Shown here piece by piece: positions 3,724 to 19,335 of a stretch of 44,489 nucleotides of DNA. A model generated the notes under the pieces. The model made no database searches and was not told the DNA's origin. It saw nothing but the letters and a program-made list of their open reading frames with translations. The position numbers and the translations under genes are program-made. Source of the stretch: Phycisphaera mikurensis (GTDB taxonomy: Bacteria; Planctomycetota; Phycisphaerae; UBA1845); assembly GCA_005240095.1 (NCBI GenBank), contig SBAX01000414.1, forward strand, positions 1-44,489. The letters are read 5' to 3'. Each line of letters starts with the position of its first letter. Position 1 is the first letter of the stretch.

Positions 3724-4248
3724 CTAGCGGAGTGCCACGAGCTTGGCGGTTTTTTGTTCCAGGCGACGGACGTTGCCGGAGCCTAAGTCCGTGTCTACAA
3801 CGGTGCCCTTACGGTCGATCCAGAGGACGGTGGGTACGGTCTTGTTGGGGATCCCGTAACGGTCACTGACTTCGCCGCCGTTGAGCAGGACGCGCTGCTG
3901 GAACTTGTTCTGGTCGACGTACTGCTGAAGGATCTCCTTGTCCTCGTCCCAGGCGTTGACCGCCAGAACCACGAGGCCGTCCTTCTTGTATTCTTCGACC
4001 ATTCGGCTGAGGTGCGGAGCCTCCGCACGGCAGGGCGGTCAGCTATAGGCGAAGAAGGCGACGATCACGGGCTTGCCGCGAAACTCGCTGAGTCGCACCT
4101 TGGCCCCGTCCAAGGCGGTGAGCTCGAAGTCCGGGGCGGGCTTGTTCTTCGGGTCTGAAGCGAAGCGGCGTCCGGCCGCGTCCGCGCAGCCTGCCAAAGC
4201 CAACACGGCCACCACAATAGAGAGAAACCACACCTTGTGCTGATGCAT
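3724..4248 (-). CDS. TlpA/redoxin-family thiol-disulfide oxidoreductase lipoprotein, probable selenoprotein (UxxC), 174 aa
   Basis: GAGGAG RBS, ATG 4248, lipobox LAGC. PAPDFELTALDG..LSEFRGKPVIVAFFAYS-TGA(4039-4041)-PPCRAEAPHL continues in frame into the 3724..4002 ORF (GLVVLAVN..PTVLWIDRKG). Confidence 0.88.
4012..4028 (-). promoter_or_regulatory. Candidate bacterial SECIS hairpin
   Basis: GUGCGGA-GGC-UCCGCAC, a 7-bp stem with a G-led loop, starting 10 nt after the UGA. Confidence 0.65.
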
Positions 4249-4393
4249 TCTAAGCTCCTCTACGGATGCCGACCGACCGCCGGACGACCCTGGCATGCTA
4301 CCCGGGCGGTAACGGCCGTGCAATTGCCGCCGACGACCTCGCTCTTGTCGGCCGCGTAATTAGAATGAGTCCAAAGGAATACGGGAGAACCCA

Positions 4394-8452: not shown

Positions 8453-11400
8453 CTAGGCGACTTGGGCTTCGCCGAGCTGCACGCTCACCCGAGTGGATAC
8501 GCCCGGCTCCTGCATGGTGATGCCGTAGAGGCGGTCGCCGATGCTCATGGTCCGTTTGGAGTGGGTGATGATGATGAACTGCGATTCGCTGACGAACTCC
8601 TTGACGATGCGGTTGAAGCGTTCGTTGTTGGCTTCGTCCAGGGCGGCATCGACCTCGTCGAGAATCGCGAACGGCGCCGGACGCGTCTTGAAGATGCTCA
8701 TGAGCAGGGCGATGGCGGTCATGGATTTCTCGCCGCCGGACATCAGGGAGATGGCCTGCAACTCCTTGCCGGGGGGCTGAGCGACGATCTCGATGCCGCA
8801 ATCGAGGATGTTTTCGAGATCTTCGAGGATGATATCCGCCCGCCCGCCGCCGAAGAGCTTGCGGAAGAGAGCGCGGAAGTTCTCGCGAATCTGCTCGAAG
8901 GCCGTGCGGAAGCGCTCCTTGGATTCGTCGTTGAGCCGGGCGATGAGTTGCTCGAGCTGGCGCTGCGATTCGGTGAGGTCGTTGCGCTGGCTGGTGAGGA
9001 AATTGTGCCGCTGCTCGAGCTCTTCCAGTTCGGTGATGGCATCGAGATTGACGTTGCCGAGGCGCTCCATCTTTCCGCGGAGCTCGGCGATCTCCGCCTC
9101 CACCTGCTCCCAGTTCTGTTCCTGATGCTCATACTCCGCGTAGCGCTCGGCGAGGTTCACGCCGAGTTCGTCGGCGATGCGGGCGGTGAGCTCATCGCGG
9201 CGGACGTTGGTCTGGGCGAGGGACATCTGATGCTCGTGCAATTGAGCCTCGACGGTGGAAAGCTGGGATCGGGCCGTCTTGACCTGATGCCCGACGGATT
9301 CGAGATTGACGCGCAGCTTGTCGCGCTGCTCGCGAAGCTGTCGAGAAGAGTCCTCCAGCACGGCCAGCTCCTCGGTGAGCTTTGCTGATTGCTCGCGGGC
9401 GGCGGTGATGGTGTTCTGGGCATCGGCGATTCGGGCTTCGCATTGCTCTACATCGTGCTTTGCCGCGACGACTGAGCTTTCCAGCTCGTGGATGGTCCTG
9501 CGGAGAGCGTTGATGGTCTCGGCCGCGGCGGCGCGCTTCTCGGTGAGCTGACCCAGCGAAATCTTCGCCTGGGTGACCTGCTCCTGGAGTTCACGGCGGG
9601 CGGCAACGACTGAGTCGATCCGCTGCTGGTGCTGGGCAACTCGGTGCTCGCGCTCCTTGTTTTCTTTCTCCAGAGCCTCCAGGGAGCGCCCTCCCTCGGC
9701 GCTTTTTTCCAGCACTTCGTTGATCTGCTGCTCGATGAAGGCGACCTCCTGGGCGATCAGAGGCTGCTCGTGGGTGAGGCGCTGGACGGTCTCGACGAGG
9801 TTCTGCAGGGCGGCGTTGGCCTCCACCCGGGCGGTGCTGGACTCGTAGATGGCGGCGCGAAGCTCCTGCTGAAGCGCTTCCAGGTGCCCTGCCTCGGCTT
9901 GGGTGCGGTTGAGCTGGTCGGCCAAGGTCACGATGCGCTCGTCAATCTCGAGGAGCTGGGCGTCGATGTCGCGGAGCTCGCTCTTTCGGGAGATCAGCCC
10001 CGCGGTTGAACCCGGCGGACCCAGGCGGATGCGGCCGTCGGCTTCGAGCACCTCCCCGCGGAGAGTGACGAAGCGATGGCCGGACACGTCCATCTTCGCC
10101 ATCACTCGGGCATGGGTGAGGGTCTGCACAATCACGGTCTTGCCGAGCAGGTGCCGGGCGATGGGAAGATGTTCTTCAGCGACGCGCACCACATTGATTG
10201 CGGCGGCGACGAACCCATCCTGTCCCGAGAAATCGCGGGGGTTGACCACCGGCGGCAGGCGATCTTCGCAGAGCACCGTCAGGCGGCCCGGCAGGTCTGC
10301 GAAAACGTCCGGTGAGGCAAGGAACGATTCGCTATCTCGAACCACGAGGCACTGGTCGGATTCACCCAACGCCGCTTCGATGATCTTCGCAAAGCGCACG
10401 TCGGTATCGATGAGGTCCGCGACGAGGCCCACGACGCCGGCCAGGGCCTCGGGTCGATCGCCGCGCTCTTTGTCGTCGAGGATTTTTCGCACGCCGGCGC
10501 CGACGCCGTCCATCTTCCGCTGCAGGTCGTGCAGCAGCTCCCGCCGCGAGACCATGGCGCTGCGCCGCTCCTTGGAGTGGGCCAGCTCGTCCACTAGGCG
10601 CTGGCGCATCTCGCTGACGCGGGCGGCCTCGAGCTTCTTCTCCTCGAGCTTGCGGGTTTCCTGGCTGATCAGGGACTCGACCTCGCGGACGCGGTGTTCC
10701 AGTTCGGCCTTCTGCCGCAGGGCGGTTTCCAGCTCCGAGTGAACCTGCACGTCACGCAGCGAGAGGCGCCCCTTCTGTCCCACGAGCGATTCGCGGTGGG
10801 TGTTGAGGCGGATGATCTCGTTGTGCGTCTGGGCGCTTTTTCGCAGAAGGTCGATGATGCCGGCTTTCTCGTCCTCCAGGACCGCCTGCGCTTCGGTCAG
10901 GTCGCGGGCGGCGGCGCGATCCTTCTCGTTCAATTCGGCGATGCGGTGGTGCAGGTCGTGGGTCTCGTGCTGCAGGGCGACGGCGCTCTCCTGCACGTGG
11001 GCGAGTTCGCTGCGGGCGTCTTCGTGCCGGCGCGAGTCTCCCTCCAGGCGCTCCTGAGCGCGCTCCTTTTGCGTCCGCTGCTCATCCACTCGCCGCTGCG
11101 AGGATTCGATGCGTTCTTCCTGGGCGGCAAGGCTCGACTTGGTGCGAACCAGGTCGTTATCGACGTGGTTGATCTCCTCGCCGAGGCGGTCGATTTCAAT
11201 GGTCAGCTGACTTTCGGAAGCCTCGTGGCGGTCGATCTCGGTGCGCAGTTCGGTGATGCGATCGCCGCATTGCTGGGCCTCCCGCGTGAATTGGGCGATC
11301 TGCTCGGTGAAGCGGTGATACTCGGCCATGGCGTAGCTGGAGCGCAGCTCGCTGAGCCGGGCCTGGTATTCCTTGTAGCTGCGGGCCTTGCCGGCCTGGA

Positions 11401-12019
11401 GTTTGACGCTGCGGAGGCGCTTCTCCAGCTCCTCGATGACGTCGGCCACGCGGAGCAGGTTCTGGGCGGTGCGCTCCAGACGCCGCTCGGCTTCCCGCTT
11501 GCGGGCCTTGTATTTGCTGATCCCCGCGGCTTCTTCGAAGATGATCCGGCGATCCTGGGGGCTGCTTTGCAGAAGCTGATCCACCCGCCCCTGCTCGATC
11601 ACGGAGTAGGCATCGACGCCCACGCCCGTGTCCATGAACAATTCGCGGATGTCCTTGAGGCGGGCGACGTCATTGTTGAGCAGGTATTCGCTCTCGCCGG
11701 AGCGATAGAGCTTCCGCGAGACGGTGATTTCCGGCTGCTCAACGGGCAGGCTGTGGTCGGTGTTTTCGAAGACCAGATCGACCTGAGCGACGCTGCTGCT
11801 CTTTCTGGTGCTGGAGCCGTTGAAGATCATGTCGGCCATCTGCCGGCCGCGGAGGGAACGGGCGGACTGTTCGCCGAGAACCCACTTGAAGGCATCGACG
11901 ACGTTGCTCTTGCCGCAGCCGTTGGGGCCGACGATGCAGGTGACCCCCGGCCCGAAGTCGAAGTCCACGGGATCGGCGAAGCTCTTGAATCCGCTGACGG
12001 TTACGCGTTTCAGGTACAT
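8453..12019 (-). CDS. smc: Chromosome segregation protein SMC
   Basis: GFKSF, Walker A GPNGCGKSN, coiled coils, hinge, MSGGEKS signature, ILDEVDAALD Walker B/D-loop; 1188 aa. Confidence 0.98.
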   Translation of the reverse strand: MYLKRVTVSGFKSFADPVDFDFGPGVTCIVGPNGCGKSNVVDAFKWVLGEQSARSLRGRQMADMIFNGSSTRKSSSVAQVDLVFENTDHSLPVEQPEITVSRKLYRSGESEYLLNNDVARLKDIRELFMDTGVGVDAYSVIEQGRVDQLLQSSPQDRRIIFEEAAGISKYKARKREAERRLERTAQNLLRVADVIEELEKRLRSVKLQAGKARSYKEYQARLSELRSSYAMAEYHRFTEQIAQFTREAQQCGDRITELRTEIDRHEASESQLTIEIDRLGEEINHVDNDLVRTKSSLAAQEERIESSQRRVDEQRTQKERAQERLEGDSRRHEDARSELAHVQESAVALQHETHDLHHRIAELNEKDRAAARDLTEAQAVLEDEKAGIIDLLRKSAQTHNEIIRLNTHRESLVGQKGRLSLRDVQVHSELETALRQKAELEHRVREVESLISQETRKLEEKKLEAARVSEMRQRLVDELAHSKERRSAMVSRRELLHDLQRKMDGVGAGVRKILDDKERGDRPEALAGVVGLVADLIDTDVRFAKIIEAALGESDQCLVVRDSESFLASPDVFADLPGRLTVLCEDRLPPVVNPRDFSGQDGFVAAAINVVRVAEEHLPIARHLLGKTVIVQTLTHARVMAKMDVSGHRFVTLRGEVLEADGRIRLGPPGSTAGLISRKSELRDIDAQLLEIDERIVTLADQLNRTQAEAGHLEALQQELRAAIYESSTARVEANAALQNLVETVQRLTHEQPLIAQEVAFIEQQINEVLEKSAEGGRSLEALEKENKEREHRVAQHQQRIDSVVAARRELQEQVTQAKISLGQLTEKRAAAAETINALRRTIHELESSVVAAKHDVEQCEARIADAQNTITAAREQSAKLTEELAVLEDSSRQLREQRDKLRVNLESVGHQVKTARSQLSTVEAQLHEHQMSLAQTNVRRDELTARIADELGVNLAERYAEYEHQEQNWEQVEAEIAELRGKMERLGNVNLDAITELEELEQRHNFLTSQRNDLTESQRQLEQLIARLNDESKERFRTAFEQIRENFRALFRKLFGGGRADIILEDLENILDCGIEIVAQPPGKELQAISLMSGGEKSMTAIALLMSIFKTRPAPFAILDEVDAALDEANNERFNRIVKEFVSESQFIIITHSKRTMSIGDRLYGITMQEPGVSTRVSVQLGEAQVA

Positions 12020-12190
12020 GGATTTGGCAACCTCCCTGTGCCCCGTGGACCGCCCTCCGTGGCGGCGACATCAGAGACTTTGGCCTCGCTTCCCGCGGGC
12101 TGCCCGAGTTTCGACGACATTAGCAGATCGGCCGCTCCGGGGCAAACCCCGCAGAGAAACAGACCGGCGACGCCCCCGGGGCAAGCCGCT

Positions 12191-14131
12191 ATGATCCGCA
12201 TCATGCCCGTGCGCCGCCCGAACGCGCCCAAATCGTCCAAGAAGGGCCGTCCTGCGCGTTCGAGGCCGCGGAGCAAGAGCGCTTCCCGCGCGGCGGCGCC
12301 GGACTACAAGAGCCTCTACGAGGCTGCGGCGGACGGCGTTCTGGTGTTTGACGCCGAGGGGCGCTACCTCCACGCCAATCCGGCCACCAGCCGTCTGACG
12401 GGGTATTCCCTCAAGGAACTCCAGCAGATGCGGATCGGGGACCTGACCCTGCCCATCCAGCGGGGCATTGCCCACGCCGCCTTCGGCGAGCTGGTGCGCC
12501 AGGACGGGCCGCTGAAGGTGGACCGCGTCGTGCGGCGGAAGGATGGCGCGCTGATCCGCGTGGAGGTCAACGCCGCTGCCACGGGCAACGGTACGTATGT
12601 GGCAGTCCTGCGTGACGTGAGCAACCGGACGGGCCCCGAGGCTCAGTTGACGGCGGCCTTGGAAGCCTACAGCACGCTCGTCGATCTCTGTAACGCGGCG
12701 GTCATCTCGGCAGGGAGGGACGCTCGAGTGCGGTCCTGGAACCCCGGGGCCCAGCAGCTATTCGGCTACACCGCTGCCGAGGCCATTGGAATGCCCATCA
12801 ACGAACTGATGCACCCCTCGTTTCGCGAACAGCACGCCAAGGCGTTCGCTCGCCACTTGCAGAATGGGGCTCCGGCACCGTTCCACCGGATTCTTTATGG
12901 CGACGCGGTTCGCAGGGACGGGCGCACGGTGCCGGTGGAGGTTTCGCTCGGCGTGGGCCGCCCGGGGTCCGATCCGTTCGTGACCGCGGTCATCCGGGAC
13001 ACGTCCGAACACCATGCGGTCGTGGAGAGGCTCAACGACACGCTTCAGCAACTCTGCTTCCACGTGGAGCGCATGCCCCTGGCCTATGTTGTGTGGGATA
13101 CGGACTTTCGGATCGTGGAATGGAATCCTGCGGCGGAGCGCGTCTTCGGATACTCCCGGGAGGAGGTCCTGGGGCGACATCCCTTCGACCTCATCGTGCC
13201 CGAGGACGCGAGAACGGCGGTGCGGCAGGTGTGGGACGAGCTACTGTCCGGTGAAACGTCCAGTCACTCCATCAATCCCAACGTCCGCAAGGACGGAGCG
13301 CGGCTGATCTGCGAGTGGTTCAACACGCCGCTTCGCGATTCCTCCGGGCACGTCCGCGGCGTGGCCTCCATGGCCCGGGACATGACCGAACACGAGGCCA
13401 TGGAGTCGCGCATCCGTGACGCCCAGAAGCTTGAGAGCCTCGGCGTATTGGCAGGGGGCGTGGCGCACGATTTTAACAGTGCCCTGATGGTCATCATGGG
13501 CAACGCCGCGCTCTTGCGATCCAGCAAGGGGCTCCCGCCCCGCGCCCTGGCCCACATTGAGCTCATTGAGGATGCCGGCAGCCGCGCCAGCCTGCTCATC
13601 AAGCACCTGCTGGCCTACGCCCGGACCGGTCGGCACAACCCCCAGCCGACCGACTTGAATGCCATCGTGCAGAGTTCGCTGGCCTTTGTGCAGTCTTCGC
13701 TGGGAAAGAACTATCCGGTGGATTTGCAGCTTGCCGGGGAGCTGGACCTCATTCGCGCCGACCGCGGTCAGGTTGAGCAGGTGCTGCTGAACCTGTGCCT
13801 CAACGCCATGCAGGCCATGCCCAAAGGAGGAACCATCACTATCGCGACGAGGAAGGCCGTGCTGTCCGGGGCCGAGGCGGCGCGGTGCGTGCCTTATGAC
13901 GCTCGTCCCGGGCGCTATGCGGAGCTGATCGTGGCGGATACGGGCGGGGGCATGGATGAAACGACGCAGGCCAAGATCTTCGATCCCTTCTTCACTACCA
14001 AGCCGGAGGGGCACGGCCTGGGCCTGGCGGCCGTTCTGGGAATCCTACGCCAGCATCACGGCGCCGCCCGAGTCGAATCCCAGGTCGGCAAGGGAACCAG
14101 GATGCACATCTATTTTCCGGTGCAGAGCTAA
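12191..14131 (+). CDS. Cytoplasmic multi-PAS sensor histidine kinase
   Basis: Three PAS/PAC domains; H-box LAGGVAHDFN, N-box NLCLNA, G1 DTGGGM, DPFFTTK, G2 GHGLGL. Start is 12191 or 12203; the track's 10694 start is antisense to smc. Confidence 0.92.
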   Translation: MIRIMPVRRPNAPKSSKKGRPARSRPRSKSASRAAAPDYKSLYEAAADGVLVFDAEGRYLHANPATSRLTGYSLKELQQMRIGDLTLPIQRGIAHAAFGELVRQDGPLKVDRVVRRKDGALIRVEVNAAATGNGTYVAVLRDVSNRTGPEAQLTAALEAYSTLVDLCNAAVISAGRDARVRSWNPGAQQLFGYTAAEAIGMPINELMHPSFREQHAKAFARHLQNGAPAPFHRILYGDAVRRDGRTVPVEVSLGVGRPGSDPFVTAVIRDTSEHHAVVERLNDTLQQLCFHVERMPLAYVVWDTDFRIVEWNPAAERVFGYSREEVLGRHPFDLIVPEDARTAVRQVWDELLSGETSSHSINPNVRKDGARLICEWFNTPLRDSSGHVRGVASMARDMTEHEAMESRIRDAQKLESLGVLAGGVAHDFNSALMVIMGNAALLRSSKGLPPRALAHIELIEDAGSRASLLIKHLLAYARTGRHNPQPTDLNAIVQSSLAFVQSSLGKNYPVDLQLAGELDLIRADRGQVEQVLLNLCLNAMQAMPKGGTITIATRKAVLSGAEAARCVPYDARPGRYAELIVADTGGGMDETTQAKIFDPFFTTKPEGHGLGLAAVLGILRQHHGAARVESQVGKGTRMHIYFPVQS

Positions 14132-14203
14132 GCATGGGTGAATCGCGAGCGGAGCGCCTCTCGTGTGTGTCCATGTCGAATGTCCAGTCTCTCGCGGTCA
14201 CGA

Positions 14204-14295
14204 GTGCGACCCTTTCAGGTCGGGATGGCGCGCGGGAGGTCCGGGGGCGGCGCTGCGCTTGCCCCCGGCTACTTTAGCGCAGGCTTTCAGCCTGC
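14204..14295 (+). repeat. Composite REP-like element family C, copy 2
   Basis: Matches 6005-6103 in all three hairpins. Confidence 0.85.
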
Positions 14296-14355
14296 TCGTC
14301 CTCTTCATGAGCCACCTGCTTACCTAAGGAGGCAGAGGTGCTACTGACTCGCCGC

Positions 14356-14895
14356 TCACATTCCCTCTTCGAGGTCTACGCCGAGGCCGTCGGCGACGCG
14401 GTTGATGTAATTGAAATAGGCGATCACCTGCGTGGCGTCGTGAATGGCCCTGTCATTGAGCCCCACGGCGCGGAGGCGCTCCACGTCCGCCCGACTCATA
14501 GACTGCGGCGCCCGGGTGAGCTTGATGGCATGATCGCACAGTGCCCGATCGACCTCGCTCAGCGCCGCCTTGGTGTAATCCGTCTTGATGGCTTGGACCA
14601 GTCGATCGTCGTGGACCTCCGACCGGAGGTCGTAGGAATGAGCTTCCGTTCAGTAGTGACAGTGGTTGGCCCGCGAGACTACGACGGCCAGCATCTCCCG
14701 CTGGGCTCTGGTCTGCGGCGACTCGCCGCGCACCGTGGCGACATAGAGATCGAGCATCTCCTGCAAGGCGGCCGGGTTCTGGCTTTGAATCTTGAGGATG
14801 TTGTAGACCCGGCCGGCGCGTTTGCGGGCGGCTTCGTAGATCTCCGCCAGACGCCCGGTGGCCTCGTTTTCTGCGAACGTTCGAATCCATGCCAT
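14356..14895 (-). CDS. AhpD/carboxymuconolactone decarboxylase-like peroxidase-related enzyme, probable selenoprotein (CxxU), 179 aa
   Basis: MAWIRTF...QREMLAVVVSRANHCHY-TGA(14650-14652)-TEAHSYDLRSEVHDD...LCDHAIKLTRAP..DVERLRAVGLNDRAIHDATQVIAYFNYINRVADGLGVDLEEGM*. The downstream half is a typical AhpD-like C-terminus in the same frame. Confidence 0.9.
14614..14631 (-). promoter_or_regulatory. Candidate bacterial SECIS hairpin
   Basis: GACCUCC-GGUC-GGAGGUC, a 7-bp stem with a G-led loop, starting 18 nt after the UGA. Confidence 0.65.
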
Positions 14896-14934
14896 GGCGC
14901 AAGCCTATGCCCAGCGCCGTCGGGGTTCAAGAAG

Positions 14935-15037
14935 CCCTCACCCCTGCCCCTCTCCCGAGGTGAGAGGGGAACGGCTCGGCGGTGGGCCTAAGGCGGATCG
15001 CCCTCCCAGTACGGCTCGGCGGGAGCCTCGCCCTCCC
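14935..15037 (+). repeat. REP cluster: family B (14935-14969) + variant A (14972-15007) + family A (15012-15037)
   Basis: Same B-then-A arrangement as 778-843. Confidence 0.85.
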
Positions 15038-15040
15038 CGT

Positions 15041-16417
15041 TCAGGGGATGCCGTATTCGCGGAGTTTGCGGTAGAGCGTGCGGGCGCCGATGCCTAAGGC
15101 CTTGGCAGTTTTTTCGCGATTGCCGCCGAACATGCGCAGGGTGTTCATGATATGCAGCCGTTCCACGTCGGCCATGGTCATGCCTGCGAGGTTGGGCGGA
15201 CCCATGCGGACAATGTCGGTGGATGCGCGCAAGTGTTCGGGGAGGTCATCGACTTCGAGGATCGGGCCTTCAGCTTCCAGGCACATGCGCATGATGACGT
15301 TGCGGAGCTCGCGGACGTTGCCGGGCCAGTTGTAGTTCATCAGCTTGCGCATGACTTCCGAGGAGACGCCAGTGAACTCCGAGCCGTGCTCGGCGTTGGC
15401 CTGGGCGATGAAGCGATGGGTGAGCACGGGGATGTCCTCGCGTCGCTGGCGGAGGGGAGGCAGGCGGATCGCCGCGTGGGCATGCAGGCGATAGAAGAGG
15501 TCCTCACGGAAGAGGCCCTGGCGGACCAGTTCGCCAAGGTCGTGGTTGGTGGCGGCCACGAAACGCACGTCGAAGTACTCCGTGTCGTTGGTTCCCACGC
15601 GCATGACTTCGCCGGTTTCCAGGGTGCGGAGGAGCTTGGCTTGCATGGGCAGGGGCATGTCGCCGATTTCGTCGAGGAAGAGCGTGCCGCGGTCGGCGGC
15701 GGCCACCAGACCTTTGCGGTCGGCGATGGCCCCGGTGAAGGCGCCTTTGACGTGGCCGAAAAGCTCACTCTCCAGCAGCGTTTCGCTGACTGCGGCACAG
15801 TTGAGGAGCTTGAAGGGCTTGCCCGCGCGGGGGGAATTCTGGTGGATGGCCTGGGCGAAAAGTTCCTTCCCGGTGCCGGTCTCGCCGACGATGAGCACGG
15901 TGCTCTTGCTGCGGGCGATTTTCTTGATGCGCTTGATCTCCCGATGGATGGCATCGGAAGTCCCGATGATGCCGGAGAATTCGAAGGCTTTGTCGGCCTG
16001 CTCGCGGAGGAGCCGGGCGTCGCGGGCGGCGAGGGCCTGCTTGGCGGCGCGCCCCACCTTGTCGCGAAGCACGTCGATGTCGATGGGCTTGATGAGATAG
16101 TCGTAGGCGCGGTGCTGGTTGTCGCGGCTGAGGGCCTCGCGGGCGAGTTCTTCGCTGCCGTAGGCGGTGATGAGGATGACTTCGCTATCCGGGTTCTTCG
16201 TCTTGGCCTCGCGGAGGACATCCATGCCGTTGACGCTGCCGCCGAGCTTGTAGTCGGTGATGACCACGTCGGGCGGACGGTGGCGAACGCTCTCGATGGC
16301 CTGCTGGCCGTTTTCGACGACGTTGCAGGCGTATTTGGAGCGGGAGAGGGCCTCGGCGATGGCCTCGCCGTGGGCCCGCTCATCTTCGACGATCAGTACA
16401 AAGGCCGTGTCTGCCAT
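15041..16417 (-). CDS. sigma54-dependent response regulator (NtrC/AtoC family)
   Basis: REC (VLIVEDE..VITDYKL..KP), AAA+ GETGTGKE, ESELFGHVKGAFTGA, WPGNVREL, Fis HTH (GNREKTAKALGIGARTLYRKL); ATG 16417. Confidence 0.95.
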   Translation of the reverse strand: MADTAFVLIVEDERAHGEAIAEALSRSKYACNVVENGQQAIESVRHRPPDVVITDYKLGGSVNGMDVLREAKTKNPDSEVILITAYGSEELAREALSRDNQHRAYDYLIKPIDIDVLRDKVGRAAKQALAARDARLLREQADKAFEFSGIIGTSDAIHREIKRIKKIARSKSTVLIVGETGTGKELFAQAIHQNSPRAGKPFKLLNCAAVSETLLESELFGHVKGAFTGAIADRKGLVAAADRGTLFLDEIGDMPLPMQAKLLRTLETGEVMRVGTNDTEYFDVRFVAATNHDLGELVRQGLFREDLFYRLHAHAAIRLPPLRQRREDIPVLTHRFIAQANAEHGSEFTGVSSEVMRKLMNYNWPGNVRELRNVIMRMCLEAEGPILEVDDLPEHLRASTDIVRMGPPNLAGMTMADVERLHIMNTLRMFGGNREKTAKALGIGARTLYRKLREYGIP

Positions 16418-16553
16418 AACGTAGGCGTCAAAAACCGCCGCTTCCGCTGAATGTCGGCTCCAGTCTCGTTGTACCGGACCCGGCAAGACCAGTATACTGG
16501 AGCCCCAGTTCGGGCGTCCAAACATCTCCCCCGTGACGGCGAGGAGAATACCC

Positions 16554-19335
16554 ATGAAGCCGTTCAAGTTGTTTGTCGGTATTGGGGGGTGTTGCGCCCT
16601 TTGGTCGGGTGGCGCGGCCCGAGCCCTAGCGGCCGGCAACGTGGCAGGATGCACGGCGGTCGATCCGTGCGCAGCATCCGCCACACTCACCGGATCGATG
16701 GCCCTTCCCAACGACCACTTTGGACGCTCGCTGGCGATTGGTGCAGACGTGATGGTCGTAGGCACGCCCGATGCGGACTGCGCCCGAGGTTTACAGTGCG
16801 GAGAGGCATACGTTTTAACGTGGGACGGCTCAACCTGGTTTGAAGCCGCGCGGCTAACGGCGCCGTCACCACAAAATGTAGGCAAGTTTGGCTGGTCCGT
16901 CGCGGTTCACGGTGGCATCGTGGTAGTCGGCACTCCGAATGAGTTCTGTGCGTCTTCCCTTAGGACCTTGTGCGGGGCTGCCTACGTGTTCCGTCACAAC
17001 GGAGCAACCTGGGCGCAGGACGCCCAACTTCGTGCTCCCGATCAACAAACGGCAGCAAACTTCGGCTACGCCGTCGCTGCGGGGCAGGACGTGATCTTGG
17101 TCAGCGCACCGTCGCGAAGCGCCGTGTACGTATTCCGATACGATGGCGCAGCATGGACCGAGGACCAGAGGATTGACGTACCTTCAGGGCTTGTGGGTTC
17201 TGGCTTCGGCAACGCCATGGCTATCCAGTGGCGCCGCGGCGTTGATCGGTGAGCCGGGCAACAACGCAACTCACATTTATCGGGATGACGGCACCGACTG
17301 GCAACTCGAACAGTCCATTTTTCCGGACGACTTGGCGAATGCTTCCAACTTCGGGATCGCTGTGGCCATCGACGGCCCAACCGCGGTCATTGGGGCGAGC
17401 GCTCGAGATTGTGCAGCCGGGACGGATTGCGGAGTGGCATACGTGTATCGGTTCGACGGATCCCTGTGGAACGCGGAAGCCACACTGGTGGCGCCTGACG
17501 CAGCCCCCGACGATCGGTTCGGCGGGGCCGTCTCAGTACTTGGCGATCTGGCCCTGATCGGTAACAGCTGCCAGTTCAGTTGCGGCGGCAGCGGCGCATA
17601 CCTGTTCCGGCACGACTTGGGGGTCTGGGCCGTGGTCGAGAAAGTCCAAGCGGCGTCCACGGGATTCGGTTCGTCCGTGGCGGTGCGAACCGACCAGCTC
17701 CTTGTCGGCGCCTATGCGGCGGGCATTGTGTTTGTCTACTCCCTGGCGGCGACGGCTCCCGACTGCGACTGCGACAGCACGAGCAATGCTTGCGAGATAG
17801 TCCGCGAAGGTGCGCCGGACTGCAACGGCAATAGCGTGCAGGACGATTGCGACGTTGCCGACGGGACCAGTCCGGACTGTAACGCCAATGGCACTCCCGA
17901 CGAATGTGACGTCGCCCGCGAAACCAGTCCGGACTGCAACGCCAACTCTACTCCCGATGAATGCGACGTCGCCGAGGGCAGCAGCCCGGACTGTAACGCC
18001 AACTCTACTCCCGATGAATGCGACGTCGCCGACGGGACGAGCACCGACGCCAACGACAACGATGTCCCTGACGAGTGCGACACCCACACTCCGCCGTTTG
18101 TCATCGAGCATCCCGAGGATGTGACGGCATGCGGTCCTGAAACGGTGGTCTTCAAAGTCAAGGGCGGGGGGATGCAGCCGCTGTCTTACCAGTGGCGGAA
18201 GGACACCGTCGATCTTGCAGGGGAGGAGGCCGATACGTTGGCGCTCAGCGGCGTCAGCCAGGCAGACGCAGGCGACTACGATGTCGTCGTGACCAACGAT
18301 CTGGGTTCAACGATCAGCGATCCCGCGACGCTTTCGTTCGCTGTACTTGGCGATGTTGCTCCCGAACCCACCGTCGTGCCCAAGAACCGCTACCTCTCGT
18401 TCATTGCGCCGCCGACGCCTTGTCGGGCAGCGATTCGCGTGCGTCTTCTTTCGCTTCAACATCCCAATCCGCCTAACGTGGACTGCTGCCCGCCGCCGGA
18501 TTTCTCGGGCTATGAAGAGGGTCCAACCTGCACGGACCCGGCAGGCTGCGTGCGCTGGGTGGGCGAGCCTCGAAGGTACCTTGAAGTGCAGGAACTTCCG
18601 GGGTACGGCACCTTCCAGGCCGCCCGCCTGCAGTGCACGCCATACTATCGCGATTGGAGTGACGTGGGGTATTTCTCGGTAACCGGCGCGGAGATCGTGC
18701 CCAGCTCGGTGTACGAGGTTGAGATGCTGGCCGCAAGCTGCCAAGGCATTGAGGAAACCTGCGCGGAAGTGTCTGCCCCGCTGGAGATTGCAACCGCTCG
18801 ATGGGGCGACATCGCCGAGCGGCGCAATCCACCGTTCACGGGCAGTCAGCCCGATGCCATTGACATCGTCTGGTTGATCAACAAGTTCAAGGCCGCACCG
18901 GGTGCCTTGAGCAATACGGTTGTGCAACTCCGGCCGAACGTGCCGGACATCAACTCCGACCCCAACGCTCTGGACGTTGCCTCGTGCGTGGATGCCTTCA
19001 AAAGCAGGGCGTATCCGTTCAGTGGTCCGTGCCCGTGCCCCTCAGATGTGCCGTGCGAGACGACAGCGTGCGCCACCAGTGCAAGCTGCATTGGCGCATA
19101 CGGAGCGGGCGCCCTGTGTGTGCGGACCTGCGCACCCGGCAGCCCGCGGGAAGGAGAGATCTGCACGCAAAACAAACATTGCGGGGCCTGCCTCGGGGGG
19201 ACGAATGCCGGGGCCACATGCAACCCCAACTCGTGTTGGCAGGGGAATTGCTGCCCGGGCGGCGGTACGTGCGCGCCGGGGACTTGTGGGGCCCAGGGCT
19301 ACTGCCGCGACCGCTGCGGGCGGTGCGCGCCGTAA
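16554..19335 (+). pseudogene. Secreted FG-GAP propeller / DCNxN-repeat / Ig-domain surface protein, frameshifted (+1 C at ~17226; real or sequencing error)
   Basis: GAGGAG RBS, ATG 16554. Frame 1 reads to ...GFGNAMAI, then after an extra C frame 2 reads SGAAALIGEPG...; colinear with the intact paralog at 19356. Confidence 0.8.
17761..18081 (+). repeat. 57-bp (19-aa) coding tandem repeat, 6 units, DCNxNxxPDECD type
   Basis: Units start at 17761, 17818, 17875, 17932, 17989, 18046. Confidence 0.9.

Follow-up and report, generated by a model that had tools for sequence, protein, structure and literature searches.

The window, the whole stretch of DNA analysed here, is a 44,489-nt contig assigned to Phycisphaera mikurensis (Planctomycetota). 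Its minus strand carries, between positions 14895 and 14356, a single gene of 179 codons plus a final stop when translated with read-through of one internal TGA (Table 1). The frame opens with an ATG at 14895..14893, a start shared by the orthologues (MAWI or MAFI), and the internal TGA lies at codon 82 within the motif C-H-Y-U-T-E-A-H, where U denotes the residue at the TGA. Past this codon the same frame runs on for 97 codons, via YFNYINRVADGLG, to the final TGA, and an in-frame TAG follows four codons beyond it. A standard ORF call gives an 81-aa protein (14895..14650, minus strand) with the C-terminus ...S-R-A-N-H-C-H-Y-TGA. The preliminary description of this DNA had reported the 81-aa ORF, the 97 further codons and the final TGA at 14356, and we confirmed all three in the sequence.

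Table 1. Coordinates of the features of the AhpD-like gene, and orthologue or homologue loci with particular features.
Feature	Position or loci	Strand	Basis
Whole AhpD-like selenoprotein CDS	14356..14895	-	Translation, TIGR01926 match, orthologue starts
Codon 67, Glu, 12 residues before Cys79, proposed proton relay	14695..14697	-	Invariance in homologues and orthologues
Codon 79, TGT, first Cys of C-x-x-U	14659..14661	-	Cys in 19/19 orthologues
Codon 82, TGA, predicted to be read as selenocysteine	14650..14652	-	Conserved TGA column, aligned Cys in homologues
Codon 86, CAT, His of CxxUxxxH	14638..14640	-	His in 33/33 and 47/47 homologues; aligned structures
Bacterial SECIS stem-loop, overlapping codons 89-94 (D-L-R-S-E-V)	14614..14631	-	Fold, synonymous sites, covariation, occurrence
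True stop, TGA	14356..14358	-	Translation, orthologue comparison
Loci with upstream L,D-transpeptidase	L022-L024, L026-L029, L033, L035, L039		
Loci with hairpin loop 17 nt after UGA	L081, L083-L084, L105-L106, L127, L134, L139-L140		
Loci with hairpin loop 36 nt after UGA	L085-L088, L101, L112, L124		

The gene is flanked upstream, on the same strand and at a distance of 145 nt, by a sigma-54 response regulator gene (16906..15041). Downstream and convergent lies a PAS histidine kinase gene (about 12131..14131), followed by an SMC gene (12070..8453). When the 1.5-kb flanks of the 19 orthologue loci were searched with tblastn, neither the regulator nor the PAS kinase was found at any of them, which gives no grounds for a conserved operon. 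At 10 of the 19 loci the position directly upstream is instead taken by a LysM-YkuD L,D-transpeptidase gene. The 145-nt spacer (14896..15040) contains two short direct repeats, ACGGCTCGGCGG at 14971 and 15011 and TCGCCCTCCC(A/C)GT at 14998 and 15028; together with the changed upstream neighbour, they may mark a rearrangement. Scans of positions 14100..15150 returned no sigma-70-like promoter and one terminator-like site, which is on the wrong strand, inside the gene and at chance level (0.8 expected). A query for RNA runs over 14200..15100 listed none. Bases resembling a sigma-54 promoter (TGG-N10-GC-like, found by eye) end 4 nt from the ATG, too close to serve this gene, and were rejected. 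Two genomes of the same genus carry partial C-terminal extra copies 1.3-2 kb downstream of the orthologue (G004:C164:6709-6927 and G003:C5:14859-14957); these are 70-71% identical to residues 107-179 and 150-179, respectively, each with a TAG.

The read-through product belongs to a defined protein family. It matched the NCBIfam model TIGR01926, 'peroxidase-related enzyme', with 146.9 bits against a cut-off of 81.8, and residues 3-173 covered positions 2-173 of the 178 in the profile. The Pfam CMD domain (PF02627) matched residues 47-103 with 32.2 bits (gathering score 23), an alignment that spans the UGA. Three further models scored below their cut-offs: the canonical AhpD model TIGR00777 (18.4 bits against 191.95), NF041238 'AhpD_rel_CFYUT' (68 bits against 175, with only the C-terminal half of the 357-position model aligned) and NF053654 'YciW-related (seleno)protein' (18.7 bits against 310). 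Since the TIGR01926 match extends over residues 3-173 and every relative conserves the protein sequence of the downstream half, the open frame beyond the UGA is not a product of chance.

The protein carries the active-site motif of the family, C79-H-Y-U82-T-E-A-H86, with E67 placed twelve residues before C79. Its nearest solved structures are Cys-containing AhpD-like proteins: 6k40 (named 'AhpD', E 9e-27, which we take to be Deinococcus radiodurans DR1765), 2pfx, 2oyo and 3c1l. With 2prr included, the structure matches range from E 9e-27 to 2e-17 over about 150-165 residues, and on the strength of these sequence matches the fold was taken as fixed. All three of the structure alignments listed place the CxxC...H of the known protein onto C79, U82 and H86. 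Glu67 and His86 are invariant in 33 of 33 homologues with Cys at the UGA column and in 47 of 47 recorded with Trp at that column ('W' forms); the 19 orthologues all have Glu67.

We then considered the UGA column itself. Among 120 database homologues it is occupied by Cys in 33, by 'W' in 47 and by Arg, Gly, Ser or Leu in 7; the remaining 33 entries are fragments that end just before or begin just after the column. The Cys anticipated in the preliminary description is thus present both in 33 of the 120 homologues and in the aligned structures. The 'W' most likely arose where gene callers rendered a TGA as Trp; the codon TGG was absent from this column in all DNA examined here, which included the close orthologues and 80 loci from a genome collection. 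Taken together, the 80 'W' forms and fragments among the 120 homologues suggest that public protein sets hold many copies of this family with a spurious Trp or at half length.

At the DNA level the TGA proved to be strongly conserved. The best 20 places in 41 related genomes (this gene and 19 others, 49-77% identity) each contain one in-frame TGA, in the identical column in all 20 and always inside C-[HRYF]-Y-U. A search of 301 genomes of the phylum at E <= 1e-20 gave matches in 113, and 136 of the 141 places listed carry one TGA; of the five without a stop, four are full-length Cys forms and the other is the latter part of a match that was split in two. These counts show that the presumptive Sec form, rather than the Cys form, is the usual form of the family in this phylum. 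In a collection of species-representative genomes, C-x-x-TGA-x-x-x-H was present in all 80 loci kept, which are labelled Planctomycetota/Phycisphaerae (the nearest), Acidobacteriota, Chloroflexota, Gemmatimonadota and others. All 19 close orthologues have TAC as the Tyr codon just before the UGA (codon 81, 14653..14655), and TAT appears among more distant ones; the fixed TAC may reflect a preferred context on the 5' side of the Sec codon.

This conservation bears on the simplest alternative, namely that the gene is a pseudogene in which a TGY codon of a Cys-form AhpD-like gene mutated to TGA, leaving only a decaying remnant of the frame beyond it. The 81-aa ORF call would agree with a nonsense mutation, as would the frequency of half-length fragments in public sets. 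However, the same column holds TGA in 20 of 20, 80 of 80 and 136 of 141 independent genes in the three surveys, and the downstream half is constrained, with full-length profile matches, the invariant His86 and no further stops; nor do the downstream halves of the orthologues show frame decay. We regard a pseudogene as scarcely credible. The recurrence of the UGA in the relatives, the phylum and the genome collection likewise excludes a sequencing error or a split gene.

A split gene deserves a closer look, as gene callers elsewhere do yield C-terminal pieces of about 100 aa with starts just past the UGA, as if an 81-aa N-terminal protein were followed by an independently initiated C-terminal one. 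In the window sequence the first in-frame ATG, GTG or TTG after the UGA is at 14499, 50 codons on. The start-free stretch is itself conserved and contains the invariant His of the family, and one domain model crosses the UGA. Moreover, the initial 'M' of the database fragments corresponds to codon 83, which is V, I, L or T in the orthologues, so that these starts look like start-codon artefacts. The preliminary description had named separate translation of the two halves as grounds for abandoning its reading, and the 50 codons without a start contradict it; we give the two-gene arrangement essentially no chance.

Insertion of selenocysteine by bacteria depends on a hairpin downstream of the UGA, and the hairpin given in the preliminary description (GACCUCC-GGUC-GGAGGUC, 18 nt past the internal UGA) matches the sequence exactly. 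The 5' arm occupies 14631..14625, the GGUC loop 14624..14621 and the 3' arm 14620..14614; 18 nt (14649..14632) separate the UGA from the stem and 25 nt separate it from the loop. Published rules for bacterial SECIS elements, as given in the available part of a review, call for 3-9 nt in the loop, 4-16 bp in the stem, a G as the first or second loop nucleotide, a UGA-to-loop distance of 16-37 nt and a minimum free energy of at most -7.5 kcal/mol (PMC13188914). The hairpin conforms to all of them, with a 4-nt loop, a 7-bp stem, G at both loop positions 1 and 2, the 25-nt distance and -16.2 kcal/mol.

Thermodynamic stability does not set the hairpin apart. For the 41 nt from the UGA the folding energy is -16.2 kcal/mol, with a z-score of -2.98 (0 of 200 shuffles as good), whereas a 71-nt stretch folds no better than shuffled sequence (z -0.41, 66 of 200 as good). 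When stretches within each gene were ranked by folding energy, the post-UGA region had a median fraction of 0.27 in 35 Sec-form genes and fell into the best tenth in 5 of the 35, which is no better than the median of 0.30 in three Cys forms. The 71-nt fold and the ranking were uninformative in these G+C-rich genes and were therefore dropped as evidence. A scan of the whole window with Rfam at gathering thresholds gave no matches. As the stability is unexceptional, the significance of the hairpin rests on its position, on synonymous sites and on covariation.

These features address the possibility that the hairpin is a non-functional by-product of the D-L-R-x-E-V peptide and the high G+C content, with Sec inserted via another element. 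The stem does overlap conserved codons, so its conservation is partly at the protein level, and chance hairpins are frequent: of 9,680 other codon anchors in the same genes, taken as controls, 39.7% are followed by a hairpin that obeys the rules with a stem of 5 bp or more. After the UGA, however, such a hairpin is present at 78 of the 80 loci, and a stem of at least 6 bp at 71 of the 80 compared with 18.8% of control anchors. Conservation of the UGA together with its hairpin in related genomes, which the preliminary description had proposed as a check, is thus borne out.

Synonymous positions in the stem are nearly frozen. In the 19 orthologues the five conserved hairpin codons have a mean top-codon share of 0.96, against 0.585 for 76 other conserved degenerate codons, only five of which reach 0.9. 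Codon use in the hairpin is GAC for Asp in 17 of 19, CTC for Leu90 in 19 of 19, CGG for Arg91 in 16 of 18, GAG for Glu in 19 of 19 and GTC for Val94 in 16 of 16. Neither the peptide nor codon bias can account for these frozen codons, given that Leu, Arg and Val codons elsewhere in these genes show free variation.

Base pairing was conserved in a broader sample. In 81 UGA-anchored sequences, a set not chosen for the presence of a hairpin, 90.1% of the cells of a 6-bp stem were paired, against 27-55% when the 3' partner was slid. Compensatory changes affected three of the six pairs (16 cells against a shuffled mean of 3.3) and none of 500 shuffles reached these counts, with the proviso that relatedness among sequences inflates such shuffle tests. 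The variants GAUCUC/GAGAUC and GACUUC/GAAGUC are examples. Within the close orthologues (20 sequences) the stem is nearly invariant, with one compensatory cell and a covariation score that 56 of 500 shuffles matched. A second test on close orthologues found two compensatory cells, the stem again being too invariant. The peptide encoded by the stem, D-[LF]-R-x-E-[VI], occurs in 39 of 47 'W' forms and is largely gone from the Cys forms (3 of 33), and the three Cys-form DNA controls have no hairpin at that place, although one of them, locus L044, folds strongly through base composition. From the frozen codons, the compensatory variants and the loss of the peptide in Cys forms, we consider it very improbable that the hairpin is a by-product, and favor its function as a SECIS element.

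The same GACCUC...GAGGUC stem, with the D-L-R-x-E-V peptide that it imposes on the protein, occurs in Sec forms from at least five phyla. Two other placements of the hairpin were also observed (Table 1). One, CACGG(A/G)GA-GGA-UCUCCGUG, places its loop 17 nt past the UGA and is found mostly in records labelled Acidobacteriota; the other has a longer stem with its loop 36 nt after the UGA and is found in records labelled Caldilineae or Gemmatimonadales. The stem shared across phyla and the differently placed hairpins would agree with a Sec form that spread horizontally on repeated occasions and a SECIS that was re-invented independently. One could go further and propose jointly that UGA and SECIS travel and persist as a self-contained cassette and that the gene here, parted from its usual L,D-transpeptidase neighbour and lying behind the sigma-54 response regulator gene, answers to a two-component redox or stress circuit, a combined reading that we regard as unlikely.

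Decoding of UGA as selenocysteine also needs dedicated machinery, and its absence (selABCD) was a further ground for rejection that the preliminary description had named. All four genes were found in the genome above their cut-offs. Profile searches identified selD (377.9 bits, with one in-frame TGA) as well as selB (313.9 bits) and selA (572.9 bits), which are adjacent on one contig. The tRNA-Sec gene (selC) scored 70.3 bits (gathering score 47), and ARAGORN reported a tRNA-SeC with anticodon tca.

We also asked if the UGA might be read with a standard amino acid, either by near-cognate read-through (Trp, Cys or Arg) or because TGA is reassigned throughout the lineage, for which the 47 database homologues recorded with W could be cited. 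Stop codons read in likely genes of the window (n = 22) comprise 6 TGA, 9 TAG and 7 TAA. TGA is therefore an ordinary stop in the window, this gene included, and its wholesale reassignment is excluded. The finding also bears out the statement in the preliminary description that one gene would use UGA both as Sec codon and as stop, a dual use that is nothing out of the ordinary here. In addition, homologues without TGA have Cys at the column and never Trp, DNA with TGG was not encountered, and the genome combines complete Sec machinery with a rule-conforming, covarying SECIS. Read-through with a standard amino acid is in our view very unlikely. The earlier proposal that the second Cys of the motif is replaced by Sec is supported by the alignment with Cys, by the conservation of the UGA, by the hairpin and by the sel genes, all of which point to selenocysteine at codon 82.

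Other candidate selenoproteins came to light in the same genome. The TGA of selD (L001:1531-1533, G000:C411) lies in the N-terminal glycine-rich loop, ...S-C-A-G-U-A-G-K..., so SelD would here be a selenoprotein as well. Within the window, a ResA/TlpA-like gene of the AhpC/TSA family (4359..3724, minus strand) has a TGA at 4041..4039 in the motif F-A-Y-S-U-P-P-C (UxxC), and its product begins with a signal- or lipoprotein-like ...LALAGC. The Pfam matches to AhpC-TSA (88.9 bits) and to Redoxin (72.1 bits) extend across this TGA, and the NCBIfam ResA model scored 81.1 bits, below its cut-off of 170. A paralogue of the AhpD-like gene, also with a predicted Sec codon, is located at G000:C32:3920-4408 (L061, minus strand); it is 38% identical, contains C-R-Y-U-I-H-H-H and scored 116.8 bits with TIGR01926 (cut-off 81.8). 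A second AhpD-like copy with one TGA occurs in many relatives.

We conclude that the gene very probably encodes one 179-residue AhpD-like protein of TIGR01926 and CMD fold, in which UGA-82 is decoded as Sec via the SECIS. A ribosome arriving at UGA-82 would encounter the hairpin loop 25 nt downstream, which would recruit SelB with Sec-tRNA(Sec), so that selenocysteine would be inserted in place of termination. The second UGA (14358..14356) is without a SECIS and would serve as the stop; any leak past it would meet the in-frame TAG. In the protein, the pair of Cys79-SH and Sec82-SeH would cycle with a selenenylsulfide, and we propose that His86 and Glu67 form a proton relay. By analogy, a selenol/thiol oxidoreductase is the most likely function; judged from its distant relatives, the protein would have AhpD-like peroxidase or disulfide reductase activity, and would either reduce hydroperoxides directly or re-reduce a partner peroxidase.

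This is a real selenoprotein gene and a further member of a family known since 2005. The preliminary description had called it a 'hidden' selenoprotein, which is apt in that the standard ORF call misses it and does not hold for the family, which is well known. The value of the finding is chiefly one of annotation, as the standard gene call shortens the gene to 81 aa. Its correct reading, taken with the candidates met in passing, brings the genome to at least four selenoproteins (this gene, its paralogue, the ResA/TlpA-like candidate and SelD). What is known of selenoproteins and of the AhpD family is unchanged by this member.

Among known proteins, those of the structures 6k40, 2pfx, 2oyo, 3c1l and 2prr carry Cys where this protein has Sec. 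The spacing of E67, C79, U82 and H86 is presumably the same as the E-x11-C-x2-C-x3-H spacing of Mycobacterium tuberculosis AhpD. There the nucleophile is the second Cys, activated via a His/Glu relay, and on that basis Sec would occupy the position of the nucleophile in the present protein. Unlike that enzyme (TIGR00777), the protein lies outside the canonical AhpD model. NF041238 and NF053654 likewise describe CMD-fold (seleno)proteins with CxxU, from which this protein is separated by scores below both cut-offs. The AhpD-like DR1765 of D. radiodurans protects against H2O2 in a manner dependent on its CxxC, according to the part of the citing paper available (PMC8945050, citing Zhao et al, 2020).

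The closest counterparts are the AhpD-like selenoproteins of COG2128/TIGR01926. In the excerpts at hand, AhpD-like CxxU proteins (COG2128) were described from the Sargasso Sea metagenome as a new selenoprotein family of 27 sequences with predicted SECIS elements (PMC1088965, 2005), and 'AhpD-like 1' was the fourth most abundant family in the GOS data, with 299 Sec forms and 902 Cys homologues (PMC2398784, 2008). A 2026 review lists an 'AhpD-like protein, TIGR01926, CxxU' (PMC13188914), and a selenoprotein database takes the AhpD-like family as its worked example (PMC13326102). As far as these excerpts describe them, the known proteins and the one reported here agree in the family model, in a CxxU with Sec as the second Cys, in a SECIS immediately downstream with a G in a small apical loop, and in having widespread Cys homologues. 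Nothing of substance separates the present protein from those earlier members, which came from marine metagenomes, whereas the nearest relatives of the present genome are metagenome-assembled genomes labelled Phycisphaerae/Planctomycetota.
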